Of a stretch of DNA of 32,156 nucleotides, positions 1-23,315 are shown one piece after another. Both the position numbers and the translations under genes were made by a program. Under the pieces are notes generated by a model. The model did not search any database and was not told the DNA's origin. It worked only from the letters and a program-made list of their open reading frames with translations. Origin of the DNA: Parachlamydiales bacterium (GTDB taxonomy: Bacteria > Chlamydiota > Chlamydiia > Chlamydiales > JAJFMK01); contig JAGVKY010000150.1 in the NCBI GenBank assembly GCA_020050175.1, positions 1 to 32,156 of the forward strand. Reading direction: 5' to 3'. The stretch's first letter is position 1, and each line of letters begins with the position of its first letter.

Positions 1-8
1 CCTGCTGA

Positions 9-96
9 GGTTGCCTCAACTTTTTATTTCCCTCAACATACTTCCGCTCTTTTCTCTGCCTTCACAACTGCCTAGAGGGACTTATGCAACAACGCC
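9..96. repeat. Left copy of a perfect 88-bp inverted repeat; the partner is at 32069..32156
   Basis: I reverse-complemented 9..96 by hand and it is identical base for base to 32069..32156. The match stops at 96/97 on the inner side. It runs to the last base of the window on the right, so the repeat may extend further outward. It contains an internal direct repeat CCTCAAC (x2). Confidence 0.95.
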
Positions 97-250
97 CTGC
101 TTTGGTATGGATCCCATCAAAGAGTACTTTTTCTGTTTCAAAAAGCACTTCTTTAATTACCTCTTGGCTGGCACCAGCTCTTTCGAGGGATCGTGCGATC
201 TTTTCCGGTTCATAGGATGTTACCTCTCCATTAGCTTTGATGATTTTCAT
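62..250 (-). pseudogene. ATP-cone domain protein, 3'-truncated by the inverted repeat
   Basis: The N-terminus MKIIKANGEVTSYEPEKIARSLERAGAS...DGIHTK fits the ATP-cone pattern (xIKrdG..epFdpeKi..sL). From codon 52 the frame runs into the repeat (9..96) and ends after 11 unrelated residues. The ORF is only 62 aa, against about 90 aa for a complete domain. Confidence 0.6.
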
Positions 251-262
251 TTGGCTTCCTGC

Positions 263-1945
263 TCAACGGAAATAGGCTTTGGTGACATATTGTTGCACCA
301 TTCGTTGTGCATTGAAAAATGAACCGTTTAAGGAAATACAGTGCCGCATGACATTGATAAATCGATCTCGATCATAGAAAGTGGGAATGACAACTTTTTC
401 TAATTTCTCATAAAGATCATTTGCGTCCGATTCGTCAGTTGTAGTTCCATTAATTTGAGGTTTACCAAATGCCCAACCTGTTATTTCTTCGATACAGCCT
501 TCAATCCACCAACCGTCTGGTATGCTGAGCATAGGTACTCCATTTAATGCAGCTTTCATTCCACTTGTCCCGGAGGCTTCCATGGGGGTTTGTGGCGTAT
601 TAAGCCAAATATCCACCCCTGATGTCATTTTCTTAGCTAATTCAATGTCATAGTTTTCAAGATATACAATCTTGATTGATTGTTTTAATTGCTCTTTAAT
701 TTTAAAGATATATTTGATCACATCTTTCCCTGGTTGATCTTGAGGGTGCGCCTTTCCAGCGTAGATGACTTGAATGGGTCCTGCTTTACTTACCAATTCT
801 TTAAGCTTCTTTATATCGTGGAATAGAAGACCTCCTCGTTTATATGTCGCTGAGCGTCTTGCAAAGCCTAGAGTTAGAACATCAAAATCCAATCCTTCGT
901 TTGTTACTTGATTCACGTACTCAATAAGTGTCTTTTTTTGTGTAAAATGTGCCTCCCAGATCTCAGATTTCGGGATGCTAAGGGCAGATCGTAAACTGAA
1001 GTTATCTTCTCTCCAACCAGGAATGTGGCGATCAAATAATTCCATAAATGAGGGAGACACCCATGTTGCTGCATGAACGCCATTTGTAATTGAATCAATG
1101 GAATATTTAGCGAACATAAGGCGAGTAATTTCACCATGCCGTTTGGCTACACCATTGATATAATGGCTGAGATTTAGAGCTAAAAAGGTCGTATTTAGAA
1201 TCCCTTCGCAACAAAAAACCTCTTTCATGTCGAAAATTTCTTTACGTTGTAGAACCTTTTCAACCATGTCTAGTGGAAATTGATCATGACCCGCCACTAC
1301 AGGGGTGTGAGTCGTAAAAATGCACTGTTTCCTAACAACCTCGACCTCTTCATGTGTAAACTGCTTTTTATTTGCTTTTAGAGCTGCTTCATCTAAAAGT
1401 TCCAGTGTTAAAAGACTCGCGTGCCCCTCATTCATATGAAAACGTCTAATGTTCTCATAGCCGAGAGCCCGTAACATCCTAACGCCCCCAATCCCCAACA
1501 CGATCTCTTGGCAAAATCGATAATATTGATCACCCCCATAAAGAAAATGGGTTAAAGTTCTGTCCCATGCACTGTTTTCAGGCAAATCGGTATCCAATAA
1601 ATAAACAGGGACACTAGACCCTTCTTTGCTTGTAATATTGTATCGCCAAGCTCTTACTTGTATTTTTCTTCCTTCAACATTCACCTATATACGTTGAGGA
1701 AGTTCTTGTAAAAAGTCCGATACAATCCATACTACAGGCAGTTCGCTCTGGACCCCCTCAGAATTTAACTTTTGATAGAAATACCCTTTACGATAGAGAA
1801 GGGTAACTGCAGCCATCGGAAGTTTTTGATCAGCGGCAGAGCGCAACATGTCTCCAGCTAAAACTCCTAAACCACCACTATAGGTTGGAATGCCTTCTTC
1901 GAGAGCAATTTCCATCGAGAAAAAGGCTATGGTTTCGCTATCCAT
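263..1945 (-). pseudogene. glgP: Alpha-glucan (glycogen/maltodextrin) phosphorylase, GT35 family, interrupted by one in-frame TAG
   Basis: ORFs 1685..1945 and 263..1684 are in the same frame. They are separated only by TAG (plus-strand cta at 1685..1687), followed by GTG. The N-terminal piece has [22 protein letters not shown]. The C-terminal piece has LLDTD..N, NEGHASL and the PLP-lysine motif [13 protein letters not shown]. Joined length is about 560 aa. Confidence 0.85.
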
Positions 1946-1959
1946 GATATTCCTATGTG

Positions 1960-2544
1960 TTAAAGGGGAGGATGCATGTGGTACGGCCCAAATGTCATGC
2001 CACCTCCTAAAAATCCTGTGACATTCACCAGCAAAAATAAAAGAACAAGACTGGTGTAATAAAGTTTACTTATTCCCAACCGCTCGCGCATAAAAGCCAC
2101 GAAAATCGCAAAAACAGCTGTTGCAGAGCCAAACCACATATGCCACCACACAAAATCGGCTAACAGACCATTATAGGAGGCTGTATAACTATAAGTCAGG
2201 CCAAGAAGGGCTGTCGGAATTGCTGAAATTGCTGCTGCAAACAGCATAAAACGAGAGGCATAGTCAAAAATGGGGCTTACGTACCAAGCAAAAAGTATCT
2301 CAGAAATAACTGTCATGACAATTAAAGCGATGGGAAAATGCAGAAAAATGAAATGAAAGCTGCCGATCCATTGGGTCCAACTTTGGGGTCTGCCTTCATA
2401 TAGTTTGACTGCTGGTTGATCTTGTGTTGTTTGAACGCTTTCTTTAATTGATTTATTTTCATGCATTTCTTTATGGCCTTCGTGACCAAAAAGAAAGGTA
2501 AAACTCATCAAGCATAATAAACTTAAAATGAAAATTTTATTCAT
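1960..2544 (-). CDS. Multi-pass membrane protein, DUF2231-like, with a His-rich N-terminal segment
   Basis: It has a signal/TM segment, then [10 protein letters not shown], then four or five hydrophobic helices including [10 protein letters not shown], which resembles the DUF2231 'HP..vHfPIal' signature. The function is unknown. Confidence 0.5.
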
Positions 2545-2548
2545 TATT

Positions 2549-2607
2549 AATGTCCCATGTGCTTCATTTGATTCATCTCATTTGTGTTAGGCATATCATG
2601 GGACATT
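2549..2607. promoter_or_regulatory. Perfect 11-bp inverted repeat (AATGTCCCATG / CATGGGACATT) with a 37-nt spacer, in the only sizeable gap of the minus-strand gene string
   Basis: Arms are 2549..2559 and 2597..2607, checked by hand. It lies between the xfp stop (2657) and the start of the DUF2231-like gene (2544). No U-tract follows it on the transcribed strand. Confidence 0.4.
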
Positions 2608-2656
2608 CCTTTCACTGTTATCCCAATTACTTGCGATTTAGCCATTCATATTTCCT

Positions 2657-5065
2657 CTAATAGGGCCATTTCCAGTCACGAATTTCTGGTAAATCATCGC
2701 CAAACTGTTGAATGTATTTTTTGTGTTCCAGTAATTTGCTTTCAGCCAATTCTCTTATATAAGCAGTCATCTTGGAAAAACGCGGCACTCTTTCCACTGT
2801 ATCAACAAACAAATGGAAGCGATCTAGATCATTAAGAACAACCATGTCAAAGGGCGTAGTCGTTGTCCCTTCCTCTTTGTATCCCCGAACATGGAGATTT
2901 TTGTGGTTTGTTCTCCTATAGGTCAGACGATGGATTAGCCAAGGATAGCCGTGGAAAGCAAAAACAATCGGTTTATCGATTGTAAATAGTTCGTCAAATT
3001 CTTGATCTGAAAGACCATGGGGATGTTCGCTTTTTGGTTGAAGGACCATTAAATCGATGACATTGATAAAACGGATTTTTAAATCAGGAACATGACACCG
3101 AAGCAAGTCTATAGCCGCTAAGGTTTCCATTGTAGGAACATCTCCAGCACAAGCCATGACGACATCAGGTTCACTATTAAAATCATTGCTGGCCCATTTC
3201 CATATTCCAATACCCTTAGCACAATGCTGAACCGCTTCATCCATAGCGAGATATTGTAGAGCTGGCTGTTTTCCAGCGACAATCACATTGACATAGTTGC
3301 GGCTTCTAAGGCAGTGATCAGCGACGGAGAGTAGGGTGTTTGCGTCTGGTGGCAAATAAACTCGAATGACTTCAGCCTTTTTGTTCACGACATGGTCGAT
3401 AAAGCCGGGGTCTTGATGAGAAAATCCATTATGATCTTGACGCCATACATGCGAAGTTAAAAGGTAGTTTAACGAAGCAACCGGATGGCGCCAAGGGATG
3501 TGTCGCGTTGTTTTGAGCCATTTTGCATGTTGATTAAACATCGAATCGATAATGTGAATAAATGCCTCGTAGCAGGAAAACAAGCCGTGTCTCCCCGTCA
3601 GAAGATAACCTTCAAGCCATCCTTGACACATATGTTCGCTTAATATTTCCATGACTCTCCCGTTGGGAGAAAGATAATCATCATCACTTGAATAGATCTT
3701 TCCATCAAATGCACGTCCCGTGACTTCAAACAAGGCATCTAGTCGATTTGAAGCGGTCTCATCAGGCCCCATCACACGGAAATTTCGACTTTCCATATTC
3801 AATTTCATGATATCGCGTAAAAAGCATCCCAAGATACGCGTAGCTTCACCCTCAACGATCCCAGGCTTGGTCACTGATACAGCATAATCGCGGAAATCAG
3901 GCATGCGCAGATCTCTTAGTAAAACTCCTCCATTGGCATGAGGATTTGCTCCCATTCTACGATTCCCATGGGGAGCCAAGTCTGCAAATTCCTGTTTAAA
4001 TTTACCCTGTTCATCAAAGAGTTCCTCTGGTCGATAGCTTTTCATCCAGTCTTCTAGAAGTTTTAGTCGACTTGGATTAGTGGCAAAGTCTGTAAAAGGG
4101 ACTTGATGTGAGCGCCAGGAGCCTTCAACTTGCTTCCCATCAATTTGTTTAAGACCTGTCCACCCTTTCGGCGTCTGCAAAATAATCATTGGCCAGCGAG
4201 GTCGTTTGCTGATATTTTGGACGCGTGCACGCTGTTGAATATCTTTAATTTTAGCAACGACAACATCTAATGTTGCCGCCATCAATCGATGCATTGTTTC
4301 GGGATCTGATCCAGCAACAAAATAGGGCTGGTAACCATAGCCCCGAAAGAGATCTTCCAATTCGTCTTGATCAATACGAGCAAGCACTGTGGGATTGGCA
4401 ATTTTAAAGCCATTTAGATGGAGGATAGGTAGTACCGCACCGTCATGAATGGGATTGAGAAATTTATTCGAGTGCCAGCTAGCTGCTAATGGACCAGTTT
4501 CAGCTTCTCCATCTCCAACTACACAACAAGCAATGAGGTCAGGATTATCGAATACTGCACCATAAGCATGCGACATGACATACCCAAGCTCACCTCCCTC
4601 GTTGATTGACCCAGGAGTTTCAGGCGCCACGTGGCTAGGAATTCCCCCAGGAAAAGAAAATTGTTTGAAGAGCTTCTTCATTCCTTCTTCATTTTGAGAG
4701 ATATTGGGATAGAATTCTGAATACGTGCCTTCAAGATAAACATTAGCGACAACTCCTGGGCCACCATGTCCCGGACCAGCCAAAAAGAGCATGTCTAGAT
4801 TATGTGCTTTGATCAGACGGTTGAGATGAGCATAAATAAAATTCAACCCAGGTGTTGTTCCCCAATGCCCTAAAAGCCTACTCTTAATATGTTGTAGTGT
4901 GAGCGGCTTTTTAAGAAGCGGATTATCTAGCAGATAGATTTGCCCTACAGAAAGATAGTTTGCAGCTCTCCAATAGGCATCGATCCTCCCTACCTCTTCT
5001 GGGCTAATGGGTCTTTTAAGTTCTTCCTGATGCAAGGTAGATTTTAAGGTTGCACACTGTTCCAT
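2657..5065 (-). CDS. xfp: Xylulose-5-phosphate/fructose-6-phosphate phosphoketolase
   Basis: 802 aa. Family hallmarks are [42 protein letters not shown] and [13 protein letters not shown] (ThDP-binding region). The length is typical. Confidence 0.92.
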
Positions 5066-5071
5066 AATACC

Positions 5072-8000
5072 TTATTGAGCTGGGTCACTAGACTTTGCTA
5101 ATTTCTTAAATTCACGATTTTTCCAGATGAAAAAAATGGCTGGATAGATAAAAAGTTCACTAATAAATGATGTGGCAAGACCACCTACCATGGGGGCTGC
5201 AACGCGTTTCATCACGTCCGCACCTTCACCTGTGCTCCATAGAAGTGGTAATAATCCAAGCATGGCCACCGAAACTGTCATTAGTTTTGGGCGAATACGT
5301 TTAGCCGCACCTTCCACGACAGAATCCTGTAAATCAGCAAGGGAATTCAACTTTCCTTCCTGTTTCCGGCGATTGTAAGCAAGTGTTAGATAAAGAAGCA
5401 TGACAACACCCGTTTCTGCATCCAACCCAGCTAAGGCAATGAATCCTACCCAAACAGCAATACTGAGATTATAATTCAAAAAATAAAGTAACCACAGAGC
5501 ACCAATTAGAGAAAAAGGTACGGCTAATAAAACGATACCTGTTTCCACGAAAGACTTTGTGTTGAAGTACAACAAAATAAAAACTGCCAACAAAGTCACT
5601 GGTAAAATTGTCCTAAGTTGTTCCATAGCACTTTGAAAATAAAGAAACTGGCCCGCCCATTCTAAACTCATTCCAGCCGGTATGACGACTTCATCTTTGA
5701 CGGCCTCTTTTGCCTGTTTGACATAATCAACAAGAGGAACTTCGCCTGGATCAACGTACACAAATCCCACTAGGTTAGCATTTTGACTGCGCACCATATC
5801 TGGCCCTCGTACAAAATTAATTGATGAGACTTGAGATAGAGGTATTTGATCACCAGCTTCTGTAGTAACAAAGACGCGTCGTAGAGTATCTGGATCTTCT
5901 CGGAATTCTCGTGCATAACGGACATTGACGGGGTAGCGCTCGCGCTTTTCAATCGTTGTCGTTACATTCATCCCCCCAATAGCTGAAGTGATGATATCTT
6001 CAATGTTTTTGACACGTAAACCATAGCGTGAGGCTTCGCGACGATTTACTGCAAAATCCATGTAAAAGGCACCTACAGATCGTTCAGCGTAGGCACTTAG
6101 TGTACCAGGTATTTTAGATACTGCTGCTTCAATGTCTAAGGATGTTTTTTCTATTTGTGCAAGGTCATCTCCATAGACTAAAATCCCTATAGGACTGCGA
6201 ATCCCCGTTGCAAGCATTTCGGTACGCGTTTGTATAGGCTGCCACCAGATATTCGTCATCCCTGGATATTGCAATTTTCCGTTCATTTCTTTAATAAGTC
6301 CCTCATAAGTGACTCCTGGACGCCATTGGTTTTTTGGTTTTAGAACAATGGTTGTTTCAACCATGCTGATAGGAGCGGGATCGGTCGCGGTGTTGGCTTT
6401 GCCCATTTTGCCTAAAACTGACTGCACTTCTGGAAACTGCATGATCTCTTGATCCGAAGCCTGTAAAAAATTGCCTGCTTCGGTGATCGACATTCCTGGA
6501 GATGTCGTCGGCATATAAAGGAGTGTTCCTTCATATAATGGCGGCATAAATTCTCTTCCCAGACTTAGCCACAAAGGGATGACTGGAATTAGAAACAAAA
6601 ATGCTACTAAAATAACTTTCTTAGGGTTTTTTACTACAAAATTCACAACTGGAATATATAGCGCAATAATCCAGCGATTAAGGGGATTTTTTTCTTCTTT
6701 CGATATCTTCCCTCTTATGACTAATGCGGCTATGGCAGGAATAAGTGTTATAGAAAGGATAGCTGCCCACCCAAGAGCGTAAGTTGTCGTAAATGCCAAA
6801 GGCTTAAATAGACGCCCTTCTCGTCCACTTAGTGAAAAAATGGGCATGAATGCTACAGTCATGACCAACAACGAGAAAAAGATGGAGGGCCCAACCTCTT
6901 GCATGGCTTCGATCAGCATGCCTAGCCGTGTACCAGGGCGACCTTCGAGCTCCCATTTCTCGTACTTCTTATTAATGTTTTCTATAATAATGATAGAGGC
7001 ATCCACCATAGAACCAATAGCCAATGCAATACCCCCTAGAGACATAATATTGGCAGACAGTCCTTGATAAAAAAGAGGAATAAAGGCGAGTAAGACGGCA
7101 AGCGGAAGTGCTAAAATGGGAATCAAGGCACTTTTTACGTTGAGCAGAAAAATAAAAACAATGACGCTGACAACGATCATCTGTTCAATTAAAGTGTCGG
7201 TCAGAGTTTTGATGGATCCTTCAATGAGTTCTGAACGATCATACCAAGTCACGAGTTTCACCCCTTTTGGTAAACTCGGTTCAATTTCCTTCAATTTGGC
7301 TTTTACGTCCTGGATAACCCTCAAAGGATTTTCCCCATATCGCATCACAACGATGCCGGCCACCACATTTCCTTTTCCATCGAGATCTGTGACCGCCCGT
7401 TGCGTTTCGGGACCGAGTTGGACCACGGCGACATCGCGGAGATAGATGGGATTCTTCTTTTCGTCCAAGGTGAGCACGATCTCTTCAAGATCTTGAATAT
7501 TTTTTATATAGCCACGAGCGCGAACCATATATTCAAATTCAGCAATCTCAATGACCTCCCCACCTGTATCATTGTTCGATTCTTTGATTGCTTGTGAGAC
7601 AGCTTCTATCGAAATGTTGTAGGAACGCAATTTATTAGGATCAATATTCACTTGATACTGTTTGACAAATCCACCAACTGAAGCAATCTCAGAAACACCA
7701 TGGACACTTCTCAATGCATAACGAATTTTCCAATCTTGAATGGAACGAAGTTGTTCCAAATCATTCTCACCTGTTTCATCAACGACTGCGTAACCATATA
7801 CCCAACCAACGCCGGTAGCATCGGGGCCAAGTGTTGGCGTTACTCCTTCTGGGAGCTTGGCTTGGATGCCCCCTAAATACTCAATGATTCTGCTTCTTGC
7901 CCAATAGATATCTGTCCCGTCTTCAAAAATAATATAGACAAATGAATAACCAAAAGCAGATAAACCTCTGACATATTTTACTTTAGGGGCCGAAAGAAAT

Positions 8001-8245
8001 TCCGAAGATATAGGATAAGTAATCTGGTCTTCAACTAATTCAGGAGTTCTTCCAGGCCATTCTGTGTAAACGATCACTTGCACATCAGATAAGTCTGGGA
8101 TCGCATCCATAGGTACTTGACGCAAAGATTGAACCGCCCATACACCTAACCCAGCAATTAAAAGGATCGTTAGTACAATATTGTTAGCACAACCGGAGAT
8201 GATTTTAGAAATGAATGAGGGCTCACTTTTCTCATTTTGGTTCAT
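5072..8245 (-). CDS. cusA: Heavy-metal efflux RND transporter, CusA-like (Cu(I)/Ag(I) type)
   Basis: 1057 aa, and it can be aligned by eye with E. coli CusA along its whole length (DA(I/L)PDLSDVQVI, FEDGTD.YWARSR, LGPDATGVGW). The three Met residues of the CusA metal site are conserved in context: LLYMPTT, ISMVETT and TEMLATGI. Confidence 0.9.
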   Translation of the reverse strand: MNQNEKSEPSFISKIISGCANNIVLTILLIAGLGVWAVQSLRQVPMDAIPDLSDVQVIVYTEWPGRTPELVEDQITYPISSEFLSAPKVKYVRGLSAFGYSFVYIIFEDGTDIYWARSRIIEYLGGIQAKLPEGVTPTLGPDATGVGWVYGYAVVDETGENDLEQLRSIQDWKIRYALRSVHGVSEIASVGGFVKQYQVNIDPNKLRSYNISIEAVSQAIKESNNDTGGEVIEIAEFEYMVRARGYIKNIQDLEEIVLTLDEKKNPIYLRDVAVVQLGPETQRAVTDLDGKGNVVAGIVVMRYGENPLRVIQDVKAKLKEIEPSLPKGVKLVTWYDRSELIEGSIKTLTDTLIEQMIVVSVIVFIFLLNVKSALIPILALPLAVLLAFIPLFYQGLSANIMSLGGIALAIGSMVDASIIIIENINKKYEKWELEGRPGTRLGMLIEAMQEVGPSIFFSLLVMTVAFMPIFSLSGREGRLFKPLAFTTTYALGWAAILSITLIPAIAALVIRGKISKEEKNPLNRWIIALYIPVVNFVVKNPKKVILVAFLFLIPVIPLWLSLGREFMPPLYEGTLLYMPTTSPGMSITEAGNFLQASDQEIMQFPEVQSVLGKMGKANTATDPAPISMVETTIVLKPKNQWRPGVTYEGLIKEMNGKLQYPGMTNIWWQPIQTRTEMLATGIRSPIGILVYGDDLAQIEKTSLDIEAAVSKIPGTLSAYAERSVGAFYMDFAVNRREASRYGLRVKNIEDIITSAIGGMNVTTTIEKRERYPVNVRYAREFREDPDTLRRVFVTTEAGDQIPLSQVSSINFVRGPDMVRSQNANLVGFVYVDPGEVPLVDYVKQAKEAVKDEVVIPAGMSLEWAGQFLYFQSAMEQLRTILPVTLLAVFILLYFNTKSFVETGIVLLAVPFSLIGALWLLYFLNYNLSIAVWVGFIALAGLDAETGVVMLLYLTLAYNRRKQEGKLNSLADLQDSVVEGAAKRIRPKLMTVSVAMLGLLPLLWSTGEGADVMKRVAAPMVGGLATSFISELFIYPAIFFIWKNREFKKLAKSSDPAQ

Positions 8246-9740
8246 CTTCTACGCCCCAATATTGCATCGCTGTAAGGATTCGACTTTCAGCGGCAATAAG
8301 AAAGTTTCCAGATGTTACTACCCGATCACCTAATTTAAGACCTGAAAGCACTTCATAATACCCATTGCTTCGCAATCCCACTTTTATTTTCTTAGGGCTC
8401 AAGCGACCATCTCCCAAATCGAGAAAAACTAACCGACCATCTCCGAGATATATCACCGCAGATTCTGGTACTTGTAAGCGCACCCCCAAAGCGATATCAA
8501 GTTCGACATTTGCATACATATCGGGTAGTAGCTCTTGAACGGGATTATCCAATTGAAAAAGCACCTGTCCTGTCCTGGCGTTTCCATTCAAATAGGGATA
8601 GATATAAGAAGCATGTGCGCTGTAAGTTTTCCCAGGTAGATAAGGCAGAGTAATAGTTGCCTTGTCACCAGGCCGGATTCGCAAGATATCGGACTGATAA
8701 ATTTCGGCTTTTAGCCAGACATTCGTAATTGGGACGATGCGGAAAACTTTCATCCCCGGTTCAACGATGTCCCCTTCAACGACATCCTTTTCAATGACAT
8801 ACCCATCCACAGCAGCTATAAAGGGCATCTTTTCAAAGGGTTCTTGCTTAGAGGTAATTTCATCGATTTGCTCATCGGATATACCCCAAAGCTTTAGACG
8901 TTCTATCGCTGATTTTATGATGGGCTTAGCACCTTCAACCTCTTCCCTTGATTTCTTAGATTCTCTTTTTAAAATTTGTAAGTATTCTTTTTGAGCCGCA
9001 TATAGGTCAGGGCTATACAAAGTGAAGAGAACTTGTCCTTTTTTTACATATTCACCTTTATAGTCGACTGTCAAATCAGTAATCCATCCCCGAACTCTGA
9101 TTGTCACATCGCTGAGTTCGGTTTCATTGTAAGTAATATTTCCAAAAGCTCGAATGACCAAATGCATCGGCCCTTCAATAACAGGTCCTGTGCGGACGCC
9201 AAACATTTGACGTCGTTGCGGTCCGACAGCAACGTCATATTTATTAGCCTCTTCTTTTTTGGCTCCTCCCCCTTCAGAGATTTTTGTTAATCCTTCCTGA
9301 CCTGTAGATAAGGTAAAGCGACCCCATCCTATACCTTGAGGCGTGCTGACAGTGACATTTAATGTCCAAATTTCCTTGTTTGGTAAATCTAGCTTGGCCT
9401 TATAGACCCCGTTGCTTTCCTCCTGAGCCTTTCCTGTTTTTCGTATCCCAGGCATCCCTGGCATGCTAGGTGCCTCATAGGCAATTTCAACTTGAGCCTT
9501 CTCTAATGCCACTCCCTTGGCATCTATTATCTTGATGATTAAAGTGTTGTCTTTTTCTCGAGGAGGATCGGGTGTTATTGAAACTTCAAAAACAAAGTTT
9601 TCTTCTTTAACGGCAGCACTTGGTGATTGTTTTTCAAGAAAGAAATTTGCGAATGTGGGAGTAAACTTAACCGCAAGCCCAGTGATGATGGCAGCAATCG
9701 ACACGAGTATAATAAGAAGAATGATGGTTTTTTTATTCAT
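8232..9740 (-). CDS. cusB: Membrane fusion protein (CusB/HlyD family) with an extra N-terminal Met-rich beta-sandwich-like domain
   Basis: The C-terminal two thirds fit the periplasmic adaptor pattern: a lipoyl/barrel region and a coiled-coil LYAAQKEYLQ. The N-terminal roughly 150 aa (FVFEVSITPDPP...APSMPGMPG...VYKAKLDL) looks like a YtkA/FixH-type metal-associated domain. I prefer the ATG at 9740 (MNKKTIILL) because it is preceded by GAAAGGA. The ORF track starts at 9779. Confidence 0.8.
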   Translation of the reverse strand: MNKKTIILLIILVSIAAIITGLAVKFTPTFANFFLEKQSPSAAVKEENFVFEVSITPDPPREKDNTLIIKIIDAKGVALEKAQVEIAYEAPSMPGMPGIRKTGKAQEESNGVYKAKLDLPNKEIWTLNVTVSTPQGIGWGRFTLSTGQEGLTKISEGGGAKKEEANKYDVAVGPQRRQMFGVRTGPVIEGPMHLVIRAFGNITYNETELSDVTIRVRGWITDLTVDYKGEYVKKGQVLFTLYSPDLYAAQKEYLQILKRESKKSREEVEGAKPIIKSAIERLKLWGISDEQIDEITSKQEPFEKMPFIAAVDGYVIEKDVVEGDIVEPGMKVFRIVPITNVWLKAEIYQSDILRIRPGDKATITLPYLPGKTYSAHASYIYPYLNGNARTGQVLFQLDNPVQELLPDMYANVELDIALGVRLQVPESAVIYLGDGRLVFLDLGDGRLSPKKIKVGLRSNGYYEVLSGLKLGDRVVTSGNFLIAAESRILTAMQYWGVEDEPK

Positions 9741-11097
9741 AACACGTCCTTTCTTCTGAAAAATGTGAGATATATCCAACAGCCTGATCTAACATAGCCA
9801 ATTGTCGATAAAATTCTGCCAAGGCTGAGTGAAGTTGCAACTCGAGTGTTCGTAAAGTTCTTTCAGACTCTATTAATTCTAAAAAGGTGTTTTTTCCAGC
9901 TTCAAAACCGGCAATTGCGGCTTCCAATTCATCTTTGGCTGTGGGTAGGATTTCTTCCTGCAAAATTTCTACATATTCTCGTGCCTGTGAAACTCTTTTT
10001 AGAGCAGTAGTGACTTCAACAAACGTTTGATCCACTAATTGGTCAAGCTTGTAAGACAAGCTTTTAATATTTGTACTAGCTTCATCAACAGCCCCTTGCC
10101 GTCTTTCAAGTTGAATGGGAAGGTTGAATCCAACGCCAAGCATGGTATACATGGATGAAAACGGCCACATGGTATTGTAAGTGCCCGACACTTCAAAATC
10201 GGGTAAATATTCCAAATGAGCCAATCGAAGTGTTGTTTCAGCTGCATCAATTTTAGCCTGTATGGCGTGTAAATCGGGTCTGTTTTGCAGGGCTACCTGT
10301 TGAAGTTGCTCCTCAGTTTCATAGACAGCAATTGGATGAAGGGCTTTTGGTGGAGGGGGTAGAGGTGTTGATGGATCGCGATGGAGTAGAGCATTGATTT
10401 TAGCAATGATGACTTCACGATCAGTCGCTAAAGAGATTTGTTCATACTCCAATTGGGCCAGCTCAACTTCGGCTTGAAGAGGGATTTGCAACGTTACCCG
10501 GCTAGTGGCATATTGGGCGTTAGCACTTTCCTTATACTCTTTTAGCAAGGCTATGTGTATATGATTAATTTCGATGGCTCGTTCAATCAAATAGTAATCA
10601 TCGAACAGATTAGAGGCGGCTGTAGCTAATTGAATTTTCACCCATTCGTAATCTTCTTCCGCACTTCCGGCTTCGGCTAAAGCGATTTTGCCTTTCAATC
10701 CTAACTTGCCTGGGAAAGGAAACTTTTGCCTAAGATCTATCTGTTGCCCATAAGCAACCTTTTTTGAATGGATAGTACCCGGAGCTAATGCATAAGAAGC
10801 CAGTGGATCATCCCAGGAGATGACTTGGGGATATTTAGCTAGCATGGTTCCCCAGGCTTGCCGAACGGATTCAAGACTGGGGTTAACAATTAGCACAGTG
10901 CCCACAAGATTGGATCGCTCTAGCGGTTCGTTTAACACGTACTCTTCAGCACTGCGTACATCCACTTTACAGTTAGAATTTCTAAAAGACCTAACCATCT
11001 GATGATATTGCTTGTTAGGCGCGGAACAACAAGAAGTCATTAAAAGAGCAAGACTCATAAAACCGGAGGTGATAAGACTTCTTGAAATGACTTCCAT
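9733..11097 (-). CDS. cusC: Outer-membrane efflux lipoprotein (TolC/NodT family, CusC-like)
   Basis: It has a lipobox LLMTSC near the N-terminus and two OEP-type repeats with coiled-coil character. Its position upstream of cusBA fits. The ATG at 11097 lies 2 nt after the atpG stop; there is an alternative TTG at 11109. Confidence 0.8.
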   Translation of the reverse strand: MEVISRSLITSGFMSLALLMTSCCSAPNKQYHQMVRSFRNSNCKVDVRSAEEYVLNEPLERSNLVGTVLIVNPSLESVRQAWGTMLAKYPQVISWDDPLASYALAPGTIHSKKVAYGQQIDLRQKFPFPGKLGLKGKIALAEAGSAEEDYEWVKIQLATAASNLFDDYYLIERAIEINHIHIALLKEYKESANAQYATSRVTLQIPLQAEVELAQLEYEQISLATDREVIIAKINALLHRDPSTPLPPPPKALHPIAVYETEEQLQQVALQNRPDLHAIQAKIDAAETTLRLAHLEYLPDFEVSGTYNTMWPFSSMYTMLGVGFNLPIQLERRQGAVDEASTNIKSLSYKLDQLVDQTFVEVTTALKRVSQAREYVEILQEEILPTAKDELEAAIAGFEAGKNTFLELIESERTLRTLELQLHSALAEFYRQLAMLDQAVGYISHFSEERTCYE

Positions 11098-11099
11098 TA

Positions 11100-12008
11100 T
11101 TACACCCAATTTTTTGATTGGTCTTTTGCCATGATCGTCTCAAACCCTGAGACAACGTCAAACAGTTCTTCATCAATGCGATTTTGTCGCTCTTGATTGT
11201 ATTTGAGATATTGCTTCTCCAACTGCTCATCAATGTGTTTTTCAGCCACTTGCATAGAAGCCAATCGACAAGCATTTTCACTGGCCAGTGATTCGGCGCA
11301 CGCTTTTATGATTGAAGTAAAGAGATGTTGGCGAATTAAAGTCGAAAATGTAACCTCTAGACCGTCAATTACTTCAGGATTCATATTGGTCGGCCATTTT
11401 TTTACCATAAAACTATTCATCCATTTTTTATCGATTGGGAGCAGGCTAAGACAAGTGGGTTCGAATTTAGCTTCAGACTTCGGTCTATTATAAAAAATAA
11501 GGAGCTGATCAACTTCTGCTAATGTTCTCTCGTGTTCTACATCGTCTAATAGTTGACTAATCAAAGTTGAAATAGTGCCAAGGGAATTAGGTACGGTAAG
11601 AGGGTTTTTGACTTTCAGGTTGGGATAATCTACCAATCGTGAAAAAACGCGCTCTCCAACAGGCCAAATAATTTTTTCTGCTGTTATTGAAGCAAGCTCC
11701 TTATGTGCATATTCAGCAATTTCATCATTAAATTGACCTACCATGCCTTGATCTGAACCAAAAATCACGATCCCAGTTCTTCGGATTACAGTTTTTTTGC
11801 TCTCAACTGCCTGTAGAATTTGAGGAGATTGAAATAAACAAGCGATTAAGCCTAATTTCACTGATTGATAGTAATGTTGGAGCGCCTTAACTGATTTTTC
11901 ATACGAATCGATGTTGATTGCAGAAAGAATTTTCATCGTTTTGATGATCGATTTAAGGGAATTCATCGTCTTGATTTTTTTTTGAAAAACGCGCATTTGG
12001 TCACTCAT
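11100..12008 (-). CDS. atpG: N-ATPase gamma subunit
   Basis: The N-terminus ...[22 protein letters not shown] and the C-terminus [17 protein letters not shown]...[12 protein letters not shown] are gamma-like. The start ATG at 12008 overlaps the atpA stop (ATGAGTGA). It is the last gene of the atpDCQRBEFAG order. Confidence 0.85.
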
Positions 12009-13542
12009 TGGCGTTACCTCCAATTTGTGACAGCGTTTTTTTAGCGATGTCGATGAGGATGCTCTTGATTTCAAGTGTCATTTTTTTGCCACCTACAATC
12101 TGCTGTTGCATGGTAGGGTCCATCTCTTCGCCAGCATGTCTAAGTCTTTTCTCTGCTTCTCCCAACTGATCGTAGGGTATTTGATCAAGTAGTCCTTCGG
12201 TAAATGCCAATAAGATAAAGATTTGAACATGGGTAGCTAAAGGATCTAGTCTGGTTTGATTAAGACACCAGCGAATGCGTTTGCCGTGTTCGAGAATTCG
12301 ACGTGTTGATTCATCCAATTGTGTGCCAAATCTGGCAAAGGCTTCCAATTCTTCAAATTGTGAGTAGGAAAGTTTAAGATTACCTGTCACCTCACGATAG
12401 GCCGCTAGTTGTGCTTTACCTCCAACGCGTGACACCGATTTGCCGACATCGACTGATGGTAAGACCCCTTTTTCAAAAAGATCTGAAGAAAGTACAATTT
12501 GTCCGTCGGTAATTGAAATGAGATTGGTCGGGATATAAGCTGAGATATCTTGAGCCTCAGTTTCAATAATTGGCAGGGCAGTTAAGGAGCCCCCACCCAG
12601 ACGTTCCTGCAAATGAGTGGCTCTTTCTAAAAGCTTGGCATGGATATAAAAGATGTCTCCTGGAAAAGCCTCTCGCCCTGGAGGTCGGCGCAATAAAAGC
12701 GAAAGTTCTCGATAGGCTCTGGCATGATTAGTCAGGTCATCATAAACGATGAGGACTTTGTGTCCGCGGTACATAAAATCTTCGGCAATGGTTGTCGCGG
12801 CATAGGGTGCTATATATCTTAATCCAGGGGGCTCATTGCCTTCGGCAACCATGACAATGGTGTATTCCATGGCGCCTCTTTCCTTGAGCTCCGCAATCAC
12901 TTTAGCTACTGAGGAGCTACGTTGCCCAATAGCACAGTAGATGCAGATGACATCCTTATTTTTTTGATTAATGATCGTATCGATGGCAATTGCTGTTTTT
13001 CCAATTTGTCGATCGCCTAGAATAAGCTCGCGTTGTCCATGGCCGATGGGAATTAAGGCATCAATAACTTTAGTTCCTGTTTGAAGGGGCAAAGTCACCG
13101 GGGCACGGTCCATTATTGCAGGAGCTTCGCGTTCAATTGGCAAACGTTCTCTGAATCTAATCTCTCCTAGACCGTCAAGAGGTGTTGCTTGTGCATTTAT
13201 CACCCGACCTAGCAAACCATCCCCAACGGGTACATCGACAACTCGGCCAGTTCGTCCTACTTCCATCCCGGCTTTAATCATTGAGCTCTCTTCAAGAAGC
13301 ACCACACCCACTTCGTTCTCATCGAGGTCATAAGCCAACCCTTTATGGCCACCTGAAAATTGGACTAATTCTTCAAAACCGACATGCGATAATCCCTTCA
13401 CTTTTGCAATGCCATTCAAAACCGACGTGACGATACCCACTTCCTTAAAGCTGATATGAGGGACTTGTGCTTTGCTAGTTTGGCTCATGTCATCCAAAAC
13501 AGAGGTAAGGACCGATCGAAGATCGCGATTTTGATTAGGCAT
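12001..13542 (-). CDS. atpA: N-ATPase alpha subunit
   Basis: It has the Walker A motif GDRQIGKT and the alpha signatures ELILGDR and [21 protein letters not shown]. The likely start is the ATG at 13542 (MPNQNRD), which overlaps the atpF stop by 8 nt. Confidence 0.92.
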
Positions 13543-14308
13543 GGATGTACTCAGAGTTTTTGTGTACCACTTCATTGGTCAGGCTTTCCAATGAAGTGAG
13601 GTAATCGGCAATATTCCAAGAGATTTTTTGCCCATTGGCCAGCAGTTCTATACCTCCTATTAATTCTGGAAGGACAATAAAATGGACGTCGAATTCCCGA
13701 CCAAACTCTTGTTGGACGGCTGCTTTGATTTTGTTGCGAATATTTTCTTTGGGTTCTGAGGCGATTTTAATTTCTAACGTTTTCGAAGCGTGAAGCCTAG
13801 CAAGCAGCTCGCCTTTTTCTTTTTGGGGAAGCATCTTCAGGTTCTGTAAAAAAACATCTACAAGTCGGTCTTGAATATCAGTATCGGCTAGATCGGCCAT
13901 GACCTTGCGCATAATAGAAAACAGTTCAGCCTGCACCTTCTGAGTGAGATCTCGAAAGACTTCTTCTTTTTCATTTTTTAGATTAGAGAGCCATTTTGTT
14001 CTTTGCTCTTCAACATCCTGCTTGGCTTCAGCTCTTAAGTTGTCTTGCAGTTGCTTGATTTCTTCGTTTAATTTTTTGATTCTTTCTGCTTTTTGCTGTT
14101 CAAACTCTTTATTCTTGTTTTGAAACAGTAAAGACTCTTCATCTGCTTCCCTTTTTTTTATTTCCGCTTCGCTGAGTTGTTTGGCAATCTCGTTTTGTCT
14201 ATCTGTGATCATTTTTAGAATTGGTTTATAGAGAAAAATTTTAAGCAGCCAGACAAGCACGAGAAAGTTCACAATCTGAGCAAATACTGTAAACCAATCG
14301 ATGAGCAT
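13535..14308 (-). CDS. atpF: N-ATPase b subunit with a delta/OSCP-like C-terminal extension
   Basis: The N-terminal TM helix plus [16 protein letters not shown] is a classic b subunit, followed by a long charged helix. The last roughly 100 aa ([30 protein letters not shown]) resemble the C-terminal motif of delta subunits. There is no separate atpH gene in the cluster. Confidence 0.8.
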
Positions 14309-14311
14309 ATT

Positions 14312-14590
14312 TTATCCAGCCACTTTAGAGATGAAGTAATTCCAGAAAGGATTAGCGAAGATAAGAATCATAGAGATGACCAAGCAATAGATGGCCATGG
14401 ATTCAATCATCGCTAAGCCAACGAAAAGAGTACGGGTCACCGGAGTGGTGACATCAGGCTGCTGGGCAATCGATTTTAAGGCAGCGTCAACGGCTCGCCC
14501 TTCAGCTAACGCAGGCCCAATTGTGCCAATGGTAATTGTAAGACCCGCAGTTATAATTGAAACAACAGCCACAAGGCTTATGTTATCCAT
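14312..14590 (-). CDS. atpE: N-ATPase c subunit (rotor ring proteolipid)
   Basis: It is a two-helix hairpin with the loop motif AQQPD and the ion-binding helix-2 motif MIESMAIY. It has an extra helix-1 Glu in GPALAEG. The ATG at 14590 lies 11 nt downstream of a strong AAGGAG, whereas the track's TTG at 14599 sits too close to that SD. Confidence 0.88.
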   Translation of the reverse strand: MDNISLVAVVSIITAGLTITIGTIGPALAEGRAVDAALKSIAQQPDVTTPVTRTLFVGLAMIESMAIYCLVISMILIFANPFWNYFISKVAG

Positions 14591-14595
14591 AATGG

Positions 14596-15285
14596 TCAAT
14601 CTCCTTTAGTTTTAACTTCTTCAAATGTTCTTGTCGCTGCTGCAATATAGACAGAAGCCAGAACAGTAAAAATATAGGCTTGCACTAAACTCGTAATCAA
14701 ATCCAATACATGTAAGAACACAGGGAAAAAGAGGGGGGAAATGCTGATAATAATGCCGATAGTCAAGGTTCCGCTCATCGTGTTCCCAAAAAGACGTACC
14801 GCTAAGGCTAGTGTGCGGGTAAAATCGGCGAGAATGTTAAATGGTAGAAAAATGAAAAAGGGGTGTAGATAATTTTTAAGAAAGCCGATCACTCCTTTCT
14901 CTTTAATGGCATACAATGGCACGGCAATAAAGACGCAGATAGCCAATGCCGCTGTAGTTGAAAGAGAACCAGTGGGAGGTATATATCCAGGGATAATAGT
15001 TAGAATTCCACAAAATCCTATAAAAACAAATATCGTGCCGATAAAACCGATATATTTCTCTGGTGTTTGCAGGCCTATTTCTTGCAAGTGTTTGTAAACG
15101 AAACTTACAATAATTTCTAAAAGAGTTTCGATATTAGTGCTGATTTTTCCTTTTACTATTCGTCGATTAAAAAACCATGATCCACTAACAAGAATAAGCA
15201 TCACTACCCACGTGACGAGAATGGTAGCATTTAATTTTAAAACACCATATTTCCAAAGAATGATCGAATCTGGCGTTATGTCCAT
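14596..15285 (-). CDS. atpB: N-ATPase a subunit
   Basis: 229 aa polytopic protein with the essential stator Arg in context (LALAVRLFGNTMSG). Confidence 0.88.
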   Translation of the reverse strand: MDITPDSIILWKYGVLKLNATILVTWVVMLILVSGSWFFNRRIVKGKISTNIETLLEIIVSFVYKHLQEIGLQTPEKYIGFIGTIFVFIGFCGILTIIPGYIPPTGSLSTTAALAICVFIAVPLYAIKEKGVIGFLKNYLHPFFIFLPFNILADFTRTLALAVRLFGNTMSGTLTIGIIISISPLFFPVFLHVLDLITSLVQAYIFTVLASVYIAAATRTFEEVKTKGD

Positions 15286-15289
15286 GAGC

Positions 15290-15565
15290 CTATCCTGAAG
15301 TTTTCATGGTAAGAACAATTTTTCTCGATAACATAAACCCGAGCAATATAAGCGCATATCTCGCTACATGCTCATTGGCAATCAGGTAGAAAACAGATGC
15401 CGTTACTACGATTCTAACGATAAAACTAGACCACCACCAAAGTGCAAAATGATTGGAAGAAAATCGCCTTAAAATAGTCCACCACAAGCCCACATAAAAA
15501 ATGGTTCCCACCCCAAGACCTACAATAAAAGAAAGAAACAACATCACTATTTCGGCCAAGTCCAT
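15290..15565 (-). CDS. atpR: N-ATPase accessory membrane protein AtpR
   Basis: About 91 aa from the ATG at 15565 (MDLAEIV...), which lies 1 nt after the atpQ stop. It has three hydrophobic helices with a membrane-embedded Arg (FIVRIVV). Its position between atpQ and atpB is specific to N-ATPase operons. Confidence 0.7.
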   Translation of the reverse strand: MDLAEIVMLFLSFIVGLGVGTIFYVGLWWTILRRFSSNHFALWWWSSFIVRIVVTASVFYLIANEHVARYALILLGFMLSRKIVLTMKTSG

Positions 15566-15566
15566 T

Positions 15567-15867
15567 TCAATCGTCCTCTTTCTTAAACATTTCTCTTGCA
15601 AGCAAAAATAAAGCTGACACAATCCCCACGCCGATACCCACAAGCAGCAAGGCAAGAGTCCATGCATGCGAGCCTGTAAAATAATGCTCTATCAACCCGC
15701 CTATAAAAATCCCTATCAATGCGGGTATGATAACTGCCCAGCCAACTAATCCAAACAGGCCAAATCCCCACCAAGCATTCACTTCTTTCTTGCGCCTTGC
15801 TTTGACCTTCCTGGCTTCTTTCTTGATGGCCTGGTTGCGAAAATCCTTTTTTTCTGGAGGTTGTTTT

Positions 15868-15875
<8 letters not shown>
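15567..15875 (-). CDS. atpQ: N-ATPase accessory membrane protein AtpQ (AtpZ/AtpI-like, 'ATPase gene 1' family)
   Basis: It has a basic N-terminus followed by WWGFGLFGLVGWAVIIPALIGIFIGGLIE...HAWTLALLLVGIGVG, which is the typical pattern of this family. It overlaps the atpC stop by 8 nt. Confidence 0.75.
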
Positions 15876-17726
<1,851 letters not shown>

Positions 17727-18629: not shown

Positions 18630-18947
18630 ATGAACCAACGCACTTTTTACAGCCTGCTGTTCTTAGCTGGGCTAGTTTTCATCGTCTCTCCCGAATTTTT
18701 GTCAGCCGTTCAACAAACCAACGATAAGTTTTCTGGGAAAGAAATCACCGATCACGCCAATAGCATCTCTTCTTTCTTATTCGGGCCAGTCGCTCGAGTG
18801 GCTGGAGTTATTGGTGGGGGCTACGGACTCGTTACTTCCATCATTACCTCCTCTATCCGACCATTGATTACTTTTGGTGGAATTGGATTAGGGGTAAACC
18901 TCGTGCCAAAGTTTATTGATACCGTTTTTACCATGCTTCTCCCTTAA
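18630..18947 (+). CDS. traA: Putative F-type propilin (TraA-like)
   Basis: 105 aa. It has a leader with an AxA-like site (FLSA|VQQ) and then two Gly-rich hydrophobic segments. Its position immediately upstream of traL is canonical. I could not verify any direct sequence motif. Confidence 0.5.
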   Translation: MNQRTFYSLLFLAGLVFIVSPEFLSAVQQTNDKFSGKEITDHANSISSFLFGPVARVAGVIGGGYGLVTSIITSSIRPLITFGGIGLGVNLVPKFIDTVFTMLLP

Positions 18948-18953
18948 GCGAAG

Positions 18954-19265
18954 TTGGTCAAAATGGAAAGCAATCAACTCCATCCCATCATTAAGACGTT
19001 AGACAACGCTCCAAGAATTCTCTTCTGGAGCGTTGATGAATTTATCGTGATGTTTCTGCCGCTCTTTATTGGGATTTTTTTAGGAAGTCTCTTAGTGATG
19101 GCTCTGGGAATTGTGGCAAAACCCCTCTATTCAAAGCTCAAAAAAAGATACCCCAAATCAATTTTGAGACACCTTGCTTATTGGACGATGCCGAGGAAAG
19201 TTTTTTCCCATGCAGGAATCCTTAAAAGGGTACCCCCATCCCACATAAGGAAGTATCTCCTTTGA
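18954..19265 (+). CDS. traL: Type IV conjugative transfer protein TraL
   Basis: It shows the TraL pattern: LDNAPRILFWSVDEF, one TM helix, and the C-terminal YWTMP...VPPSHIRKYL (compare F TraL YWYMP...VPDSCFRQWI). The ATG at 18963 is an alternative to the TTG at 18954. Confidence 0.85.
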   Translation: MVKMESNQLHPIIKTLDNAPRILFWSVDEFIVMFLPLFIGIFLGSLLVMALGIVAKPLYSKLKKRYPKSILRHLAYWTMPRKVFSHAGILKRVPPSHIRKYLL

Positions 19266-19819
19266 AGACAAGCACTTACTACCACAACCTTCGGCTCATG
19301 GTTTTCCAAAGAAATATCTTTCTTGGATTGACCATTCTACTCTCATTGTCCCTTGTCATTCTTTCCATTTTTCTCTTTTGGAAAAGCGAGCGAATAGTTG
19401 TGGTCCCCCCTATGATTGAAAAAGAATTTTGGGTGGATTCTCGAGGGGTTTCAGGAAGCTACTTAGAGCAATTCGGAGGGTTTATAGGGCAACTCCTCCT
19501 CTCAAAATCTGCCCAAACAGCCCAAAACCAAAGGGCTATTCTCCTACGGCATACTGACCCATCTTTCTCGACCCTTCTCTCTAAGAAATTGGGAGAGGAA
19601 GAGCAAAAACTTCTCAAGGAAAATGCTTCTTATGTCTTCTATCCTATCGAAGCAAGAAGCAATCCTAAAACAAATGAAGTGCTTCTCATCGGAGATCGGA
19701 CAATTTATGTTTCTGGCACATCTATTTCTTCAGAAAGAGTTAGATATATCCTTTCCTTCTCAAATCAGGGGCCCAGGCTTTTACTAAAAGGGATAACCCT
19801 AAGCGAGGAAGAAAAATGA
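19262..19819 (+). CDS. traE: Type IV conjugative transfer protein TraE
   Basis: 185 aa with an N-terminal TM anchor. Its size, topology and position match TraE. It has a TTGA overlap with traL. Confidence 0.8.
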   Translation: MKTSTYYHNLRLMVFQRNIFLGLTILLSLSLVILSIFLFWKSERIVVVPPMIEKEFWVDSRGVSGSYLEQFGGFIGQLLLSKSAQTAQNQRAILLRHTDPSFSTLLSKKLGEEEQKLLKENASYVFYPIEARSNPKTNEVLLIGDRTIYVSGTSISSERVRYILSFSNQGPRLLLKGITLSEEEK

Positions 19820-20511
19820 GGTCGCTGCCGCTTCTTCTTCTTTTTCTTAGCACCTTTTTGAGCCGGGCTGAAGCGGCTCAATTCTTGGACATAGATACGA
19901 CTCAACTTCTTCGGTGTGTCTTTTCTTCAAGACATCACAATCGAATCGCTATCAGCGGAAAAAGGATTAAAAAAGTCTTTTGCCCTGAAGGGGATGTCGT
20001 AGTTAGGCAAGAAGAGGAGAGCGGACAAGTATTCGTTCAGTCTCTTGTTGAGAGGCCCCCTGTCACCACTATTTCCATCGTTTCCAATGATGGAATCGTT
20101 CAAGACATTGAGCTCCATTTTGAAGAATGCTCGGCAGAAATTTTAATCCTGACAGAGAGAAGAGAAGAGTGCCTTGATCCAAGATGCTGCATTGTTGATG
20201 CAGGAACCAATCCTTTCGATGCCTTAATTGCAGGAGTTCTCAATCAGCAAATCCCTGACAATTACATCTCTTTTTCCTGCGATAGAAAAGCCAAACAAGT
20301 CAAAAAAGGGGTTATCCTCCGTCGAATCTCAAAATTTATCGGAGAGAACGATACAGCCTATTTACTCGGAGTTGAAAACGTCTCAAGAATTAAACAGTGC
20401 ATCCAAGAAAGCGACGTCAATATTTTAGGCGGAGATTGGGTCTACCTTCAAAAAAGGGAACTCTGTCCGGGTGAAAAAACCTTTGCCCTAGTGGGAAGGA
20501 TGTTGCCATGA
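19816..20511 (+). CDS. traK: Type IV conjugative transfer protein TraK (secretin-like)
   Basis: It has a signal peptide and the motif HHNRIAISGKRIKKVF...ESGQVFVQ, which is typical of TraK. It has an ATGA overlap with traE. Confidence 0.8.
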   Translation: MRSLPLLLLFLSTFLSRAEAAQFLDIDTTQLLRCVFSSRHHNRIAISGKRIKKVFCPEGDVVVRQEEESGQVFVQSLVERPPVTTISIVSNDGIVQDIELHFEECSAEILILTERREECLDPRCCIVDAGTNPFDALIAGVLNQQIPDNYISFSCDRKAKQVKKGVILRRISKFIGENDTAYLLGVENVSRIKQCIQESDVNILGGDWVYLQKRELCPGEKTFALVGRMLP

Positions 20512-21728: not shown

Positions 21729-22350
21729 GAAATTTTTATTTACGCAAATCATTGCAACGACGTGCCTAGTGGCCAATGATGATCCCCGAAAGGCACAGAA
21801 AATATTTCCCTCTGAAACATTTCTCATGGAGATGCCACAAAAGGGACAGAAGTGGAAAGACATATCAAGGTACATAAGCAGTATTGCAGCGCAAATCGAA
21901 TGCATTCCTTTTGATCAAAATGAGAAAAACTGGTCTGAACTGATTGCCATCCAATTTTTTCGCATCAGAGGAGGATGCCTCAAAGATATTATCTCTGAAG
22001 TTAAGGAGACTGCCCTTTCCTCATATCCTGGCACCAAGGTGACTTGGAACATTCTTGAGGAAGCTGAAAATGAGGTTATCTATGAGTGGACTATTCACGA
22101 ACCTTTTTTAAGTGTACCTCCTCAATACGAAGTTGCAAAAGCCATGCTGAGTCCCAGAGGATTCCACCGAATTGGCTATACCGTCAGAAATAAAGAGGTA
22201 ACCGATCAGCGAAAAGCAGAATTAACAAAGCTTATTCGTAAAAACACTAGAGTCGTTTCTTTCTCAGAGGCTGAGAGATTACCTGAGACGATCTCATGTG
22301 TAGATAGAGCTCACCGTTCGGCGGGACTAGGCGAAACATATAAAGATTAG
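21721..22350 (+). CDS. Hypothetical secreted protein embedded in the tra operon
   Basis: 209 aa with an N-terminal hydrophobic signal-like segment. It overlaps the traB stop by 8 nt. I recognise no family. Confidence 0.5.
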   Translation: MLKKFLFTQIIATTCLVANDDPRKAQKIFPSETFLMEMPQKGQKWKDISRYISSIAAQIECIPFDQNEKNWSELIAIQFFRIRGGCLKDIISEVKETALSSYPGTKVTWNILEEAENEVIYEWTIHEPFLSVPPQYEVAKAMLSPRGFHRIGYTVRNKEVTDQRKAELTKLIRKNTRVVSFSEAERLPETISCVDRAHRSAGLGETYKD

Positions 22351-22394
22351 AAAATGATGGAAGATATTTACACTAAATCCGGTAGAGAAATTTC

Positions 22395-22988: not shown

Positions 22989-23313
22989 TCGCTTCTGCTT
23001 CGTATTACTCTCGTTTTTATTGACTTCCTGCCAAGTCTACAGGTCTCAATTTGATTGTCCTCCTGGTTGCGGCGTCCCTTGTACCCCCCTCACGACCTTA
23101 GAAAAGATGATCATTGAAACGGATGAAGGGCCCGATCTATTTCTTGGTTACCTCCCAAGAGAAGAGCAGGATTGCGAGTGTTTTAACCCAGGCCGCTCCT
23201 TAGAGTGCCCTCATAATAAAGCGGTGCGAAAAATTTGGATCGAAGGGAAAAACCTTCCCTGCGGAACTTACGTAGAAGGGCATTATGTCTATTACCCAAC
23301 GAGGGAGAATTGA
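22975..23313 (+). CDS. traV: Outer-membrane lipoprotein TraV
   Basis: It has a lipobox LLTSC followed by the Cys pattern FDCPPGCGVPC that is characteristic of TraV. Its position upstream of traC fits. Confidence 0.8.
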   Translation: MLRVSRFCFVLLSFLLTSCQVYRSQFDCPPGCGVPCTPLTTLEKMIIETDEGPDLFLGYLPREEQDCECFNPGRSLECPHNKAVRKIWIEGKNLPCGTYVEGHYVYYPTREN

Positions 23314-23315
23314 TC

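Follow-up and report, generated by a model that had tools for sequence, protein, structure and literature searches.

Both ends of a 32-kb Parachlamydiales contig probably carry the same end of a multi-copy IS903-type insertion sequence

Insertion sequences of the IS903 group are 1050-1054 bp long, have inverted repeats (IRs) of 15-27 bp, produce 9-bp target duplications and are found in several copies per genome (PMC3281130, Table 2). The IR of IS903 is GGCTTTGTTGAATA, and IS903 has a TGT motif in common with IS26, the terminal inverted repeat (TIR) of which is GGCACTGTTGCAAA (PMC8477213). ISSod12 is 1058 bp long with the IR GGCTTTGTTTCCTAAAT. In Tn903 and pirAB-Tn903, inverted IS903-type copies flank a cargo (PMC5294582).

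The sequence analysed here, referred to as the window, is a stretch of 32,156 bp from a Parachlamydiales bacterium that begins and ends in an inverted repeat. We consider it quite probable that one and the same end of an IS903-type IS (IS5 family), present in multiple copies and inserted in two genes, forms both ends of the window. The terminus of the repeat starts with GGC, has a TGTTG core and agrees with the IRs of IS903 and ISSod12 at 12 of 14 and 14 of 18 bases, respectively. Metagenomic elements with an IR identical to this terminus measure 1047-1124 bp and have 18-bp IRs and one DDE_Tnp_1 transposase, as do members of the IS903 group (IS903/IS903B, ISSod12, the Vibrio 'IS903' and Paracoccus ISPko1; PMC3281130, PMC5294582), and the likeness extends to the presence of multiple copies and to gene disruption. 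The differences are that the transposases of these relatives are just ~42% identical to that of ISSod12, that the host here is chlamydial, and that the metagenomic copies with this IR show no target duplication, whereas one of 9 bp is typical of the group. The arrangement recalls Tn903 and pirAB-Tn903 in that what appear to be inverted IS903-type copies bracket a cargo, but the 32 kb enclosed here belong to a tra/N-ATPase region that is otherwise conserved, and a gene is broken at each inner border. IS26 and the IS6 pseudo-compound transposons are alike in 11 of 14 TIR bases, including the conserved GG, TGT and G10 (PMC8477213), but are built on elements of ~0.8 kb, in contrast to the ~1.08-kb IS5-family elements that have the exact 18-nt terminus.

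The assignment to a chlamydial host follows from a second contig with the same repeat (L001, described below) and from a Criblamydia homologue. Another environmental chlamydia, Protochlamydia amoebophila UWE25 (Parachlamydiaceae), harbors a genomic island of F-like tra genes, and the cargo of the window likewise includes an F-type traL-E-K-B-C-W/trbC-U-N-F-H set. The window cluster differs in being interrupted in traH by what is probably an IS, and the likeness is one of cargo and not of the repeat.

The inverted repeat at the contig ends and its copies at other sites

A repeat search of the 32,156 bp found positions 9-96 and 32069-32156 to be exact reverse complements over 88 nt (100% complementary), as the preliminary description had reported, and no repeat longer than 29 nt beyond this pair. 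With ~5e8 position pairs x 4^-88, a chance origin of the arms is excluded. Exact records of the window's proteins in NCBI and JGI/IMG identified the window as an entire contig of 32156 bp, so that the right arm extends to the last base of that contig. On the left, eight further bases (1-8) were counted as repeat because positions 1-96 of L001 and of the window are identical, which agrees with the earlier expectation that the repeat is longer on its outer side. The left copy thus comprises the terminal 96 nt of a repeated element (1..96, minus strand), the remainder of which lies off the contig, and the right copy (32069..32156, plus strand) is that same end, inverted and represented by its terminal 88 nt. 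The 18-bp terminal inverted repeat occupies 79-96 in the left copy, where it reads GGCGTTGTTGCATAAGTC on the minus strand, and 32069-32086 on the plus strand in the right copy. With up to 3 mismatches allowed, the IR matches the window at these two sites and nowhere else, against an expectation of 0.02. The possibility that the repeat is a structured RNA or a hairpin was rejected, since an Rfam search of the repeat gave sub-threshold noise only and its DNA fold was no better than that of shuffled sequences (z = 0.42).

Further copies were sought in two ways. The 29 nt beside the junction were scanned against 185,579 species-representative genomes and returned a single locus, L001, a 4,853-bp contig of the MAG 'Parachlamydiales bacterium SW_18' that starts with the 96 bases described above and diverges from the window at the same base into chromosomal genes, e.g. 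a class II fumarase. Six-frame peptides of the 96-mer, searched against 5.8 billion clustered proteins, also gave one match, a contig-edge ORF (P0001) on an 8,906-bp JGI contig that reads …LPRGTYATT/PLLNILNEACYG… and so crosses this terminus into a fourth flank unlike the other three. Looking for other copies of the repeat, as had been proposed, therefore established at least four unrelated insertion sites, and the four distinct junctions (window left, window right, L001 and P0001) all end in …ATGCAACAACGCC. These data point to an active IS, probably of the IS903 type, with four copies or more in a Parachlamydiales genome. Neither the 96-mer nor a 33-mer had a match in the plasmid, viral and JGI metagenome collections, so that a technical sequence is excluded. 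Exact-protein look-ups for the truncated TraH, the phosphorylase, DUF2231, XFP, P0001 and P0005 returned no record.

All four junctions are located at contig ends, and consequently none of them is crossed by a read-supported contig. The preliminary description had held that confinement to contig ends would speak against a mobile element. Literally the repeat is so confined, but this is what a multi-copy IS is expected to do in short-read assembly, and the junctions are not thereby artefacts. With at least four copies present, a short-read de Bruijn assembler would fail to cross the element and would stop a fixed distance (~90 nt) inside it at each flank, and a pair of copies in opposite orientations would inevitably show up as a perfect 'terminal inverted repeat' on the contig. 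The length of repeat retained is 96 nt at the left end of the window and in L001, and ~88 nt at the right end of the window and in the contig of P0001; one guess is that the difference stems from the stepwise k-mer sizes of an iterative assembler. This inequality of the arms, together with the restriction of the repeat to contig ends, might also be read as an assembly artefact, either a chimeric join or a fold-back onto the contig ends. We regard this as highly improbable and reject the fold-back explanation offered earlier, since the same final base stands against four flanks with a bona fide IS terminal repeat exactly there, the repeat does not derive from the contig interior, and a technical sequence would be expected in the plasmid, viral and other metagenome collections, where this repeat was not found. 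The IS accounts for the contig ends as the ordinary outcome of a multi-copy element in short-read assembly. This result serves as a warning that 'inverted terminal repeats' on metagenomic contigs are not evidence of complete linear genomes or of discrete mobile units.

Identity and orientation of the element

The terminus read from the junction (GGCGTTGTTGCATAAGTC…, 18 nt) was found at 54 loci in a scan of the metagenome collection. Four of these loci (L046, L047, L048 and L058) have two exact inverted copies of the 18-mer 1075-1087 bp apart and one ORF of ~305 aa, and allowing mismatches in the second IR added other complete copies, of 1047-1124 bp. The ORFs of these elements scored 278-284 bits on the NCBIfam model NF033579 'IS5 family transposase' (cutoff 140), contained the Pfam domains DDE_Tnp_1_5 and DDE_Tnp_1, and were 42% identical to ISSod12. 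ORFs of the L046/L047/L048/L058 type match thousands of enterobacterial plasmid records, which were taken to be IS903-type copies. The repeat of the window, which is foreign to both of the genes that it adjoins and ends at the same base in four junctions, thus terminates in the IR of complete IS5-family elements, and the earlier suggestion of two inverted IS copies gains support from this identity, from the junctions (at least four) and from the intactness of both genes in relatives. The IR length of ~15-27 bp and the initial GGC of the IS903 group are found in GGCGTTGTTGCATAAGTC, with one kind of end visible in the window, and the multiple copies of that group have their counterpart in the four flanks behind the same terminal base.

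An IS5-family transposase lies directly inward of the 18-mer at ~31 of 59 occurrences, and these transposases are 34-100% identical to two references. Because the values fall as low as 34-40%, the 18-mer is best regarded as the conserved IR of a broad clade, made up of environmental IS5-family elements and miniature derivatives (MITEs) that are mostly uncatalogued and for which GGCGTTGTTGCATAAGTC serves as a marker. The element of the window is probably a new, incompletely seen member of a well-known IS group. Homologues of the transposase occur almost exclusively on isolated contigs of 1.0-2.5 kb, a collapsed-repeat signature from which it follows that this IS type routinely breaks assemblies. 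No target duplication was present beside ~11 complete metagenomic copies, including L046, L047, L058, L007, L022, L025, L035, L051 and L052, and this may reflect the joining of flanks of different copies where repeats collapsed in assembly. Past the first 18-21 nt, the 96-mer did not significantly resemble clade left ends (z = 1.08; 61 of 500 shuffled sequences did as well), and the family assignment therefore rests on the IR and on the behaviour of the element. The GG..TGTTGCA terminus had also prompted consideration of the IS6/IS26 family, characterized by elements of ~0.8 kb with a 14-bp TIR (GGnnnTGTTGCAAA) and a DDE_Tnp_IS240 transposase. Despite the agreement at 11 of 14 TIR bases, this candidate was rejected, as the elements with the exact terminus are ~1.08 kb long and encode IS5-family transposases.

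On this evidence, the element would be ~1.05-1.1 kb long (1.05-1.12 kb in relatives), with perfect 18-bp IRs starting with GGC and one DDE transposase, and a full copy would begin or end with CCTGCTGAGGTTGCC… and finish in GACTTATGCAACAACGCC. We infer that a full transposase-bearing copy continues past each contig end. An unlikely alternative is that the repeat belongs to a MITE or a solo end of this IS family and not to a complete, transposase-bearing IS. A 114-bp MITE-like element with the same inverted repeat does occur in L023 (6515-6628, GGCGTTGTTGCATAAGTC … TTATGCAACAACGCC), which shows that this IS clade has non-autonomous derivatives. Furthermore, the 96 nt of the window are without transposase coding, no transposase linked to the 96-mer was found in the 5.8 billion clustered proteins, and none of the best 120 homologues of the L047 transposase has an N-terminus compatible with …LRQPQQ. 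However, a non-coding leader of 63-126 nt is usual in the left ends of the clade, so that 96 nt without coding are expected of a complete IS. The element extends past these 96 nt, within which no second IR appears, and this IR is found most often in complete copies. The locus is best read as two inverted IS903-type copies, or copies of a non-autonomous derivative, that inserted independently in a tra/N-ATPase island and at which the contig breaks off.

The complete elements also give an indication of which end is seen. In the left ends of the clade the ATG of the transposase is 63-126 nt from the terminus, often right behind a hairpin that includes the Shine-Dalgarno (SD) sequence, while in the right ends the stop codon is 40-79 nt from the terminus. 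Within the 96 nt of the window, all three inward frames have stops near the terminus, similarity to a transposase C-terminus is absent (a genuine right end gives E = 3e-7), and the sequence finishes in a possible SD and TTG start (…GAGGGAAATAAAAAGTTGAGGCAACCTCAGCAGG). These three features favour the left, transposase-upstream end as the most likely identity of the repeat, with a transposase that would read out of the window at either end. Frame +1 of the 96-mer (…SAFTTA*) was considered as a transposase C-terminus and discarded. No database protein carries it, its stop is 21 nt from the terminus as compared with 40-79 nt in clade right ends, and it has no C-terminal similarity. The left-end hairpin, GACACCTC…GAGGTGTC, is common to the left ends of the clade (L047 982-1111, L058 167-296, L012 1-123, L021 2670-2799 and others). 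Its 3' arm holds the SD sequence immediately before the transposase ATG, and it would be likely to block translation of read-through transcripts.

Interrupted genes and the bracketed 32 kb

Both inner borders of the repeat cut a gene that is intact in relatives. At the left border, the minus strand of 97..250 encodes codons 1-51 of a gene for an ATP-cone and Mrr-like/AF1548-like nuclease; the annotated ORF of 62 aa (62-250) takes its last 11 codons from the element, and the Pfam ATP-cone match covers profile positions 1-56 of 88. The gene is intact (280 aa) in L004 and L005, with its usual neighbours beyond, which in L004 are an MBL/beta-CASP gene and then a thymidine-phosphorylase-like gene. 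These two contigs are syntenic with the window at 82-86% identity across the N-ATPase, OEP, CusB, CusA, phosphoketolase and phosphorylase genes, and homology of the window to L004 ends at 96/97 to 97/98, which corresponds to codon 52 of 280. A search for the remainder of the ATP-cone gene gave full-length homologues and one unrelated, N-terminally truncated protein, P0043. In P0043, encoded on a JGI contig of 4279 bp, the first ~13 residues of the ATP-cone/Mrr-like gene are replaced by the unrelated MSVVFRCFAIVKRNEKFYYHSQRSCAKD…, which suggests that this nuclease gene may have been disrupted independently in another lineage.

At the right border, codons 1-322 of traH occupy 31103..32068 on the plus strand. 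The ORF continues to 32083 with an end supplied by the element (GVVA*), and its Pfam TraH match covers profile positions 1-303 of 358. The TraF protein of the window recurs unchanged on L002, an ENA contig of 16,345 bp with 95.8% identity to positions 26838-32069 of the window. L002 has an intact traH of 449 aa, followed by an ORF of 213 aa and traG. The window tracks this contig up to …ATTGATGAC(G) at 32068/32069, i.e. traH codon 323 of 449, and then enters the repeat. The C-terminal 88 aa of TraH (P0003/P0005) are encoded on a separate contig of 3587 bp from the same sources (NCBI and JGI/IMG), and these sources also record the exact 213-aa protein found downstream of traH in L002. The remainder of the tra region has therefore not been lost from the data, in keeping with a simple insertion. 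The codons at which identity had been reported to stop, 52 in the ATP-cone ORF and 323 in traH, are both correct with respect to L004 and L002, and the end of homology at the repeat boundary in two genes that relatives keep intact confirms that the repeat is foreign to both contexts.

Because the cut genes keep their normal neighbours in relatives and the remainder of TraH is in the same data, the arrangement speaks for two separate insertions into a region that was already in place. One copy would have inserted into the ATP-cone/Mrr-like nuclease gene and the other, in opposite orientation, into traH, in a Parachlamydiales genome or plasmid carrying an F-type conjugation cluster. We infer that both insertions were independent and simple; in a simple insertion into traH, a 9-bp repeat of ATTGATGAC/TTGATGACG would adjoin the other end of the IS. 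Both traH and the ATP-cone nuclease gene have probably been inactivated, and the loss of traH has probably disabled the F-type conjugation system.

The same gene structures bear on the idea that the contig is a linear plasmid or phage genome with terminal inverted repeats as its physical ends, to which a complete contig with inverted termini lends itself. Both termini cut conserved genes in mid-domain that continue in relatives, the same terminus adjoins chromosomal genes in L001, and replication, telomere and phage genes are absent from the window by Pfam. We give this idea almost no credence, and the linear element proposed earlier was rejected on the evidence of the cut genes and the chromosomal flank.

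The bracketed DNA falls into two blocks, both of which stand outside the repeat. The first (263..17666, minus strand), defined by Pfam matches and synteny with L004/L005, contains a phosphorylase, DUF2231, a phosphoketolase, a CusCBA-like RND efflux system and an N-ATPase operon. The second (18630..31106, plus strand), also supported by Pfam and 96% identical to L002, contains the F-type conjugation genes upstream of the broken traH, namely a pilin-like gene, traL, E, K and B, a DsbA-like gene, traC, an S26 peptidase gene, trbC, traU, traN and traF. The preliminary description had suggested that this segment might be a composite-transposon-like or invertible unit. The window has one IS in two copies around a segment, which is the geometry of Tn903 and pirAB-Tn903, where inverted IS903-type copies surround a cargo (PMC5294582); the IRs of the clade are identical at both ends, making any pair of ends usable; and metal efflux and N-ATPase genes are the kind of cargo that transposons often carry. 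However, the inner borders cut genes that continue outside the unit, in the order traH-orf213-traG in L002 and ATP-cone-MBL-thymidine-phosphorylase-like in L004, traH sequence from beyond the break survives in the same data, and no other context was observed for the unit. Since the border genes continue outside in relatives, the 32 kb represent a slice of a larger conserved region and not a delivered unit. The inverted IS copies of the earlier proposal thus stand, while the composite or invertible 32-kb unit becomes a formal possibility only. We consider it improbable that the segment moved as one functional compound transposon of the Tn903 type, or that the 32 kb flip by homologous recombination between the copies. 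Somewhat less probable still is an active, very large Tn903-like transposon or invertible cassette that shuttles the N-ATPase, Cus-type efflux, phosphoketolase and most F-type mating-pair genes between replicons of environmental chlamydiae. A site-specific invertible segment of the Hin/Gin/Fim type was rejected as well, as a Pfam scan of 33 ORFs detected no recombinase and the repeat is the end of an IS.

Comparison of the two blocks with their relatives revealed three further differences. In the first block, an in-frame TAG at 1685-1687 (minus strand) divides the glycogen-phosphorylase-like gene into ORFs at 1685-1945 and 263-1684; L004 has GAA at this site and an intact gene of 560 aa, and the split is probably a nonsense mutation or a sign of a pseudogene. 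A DUF2231 membrane-protein gene (1960-2544) lies between the phosphoketolase and phosphorylase genes of the window and is absent from the syntenic L004/L005. In the second block, L002 carries between the TrbC-like gene and traU a 5.4-kb insert (L002 780-6224 versus window 26796-26838) that is absent from the window and that encodes an AbiEi/AbiEii toxin-antitoxin/abortive-infection pair along with other ORFs.
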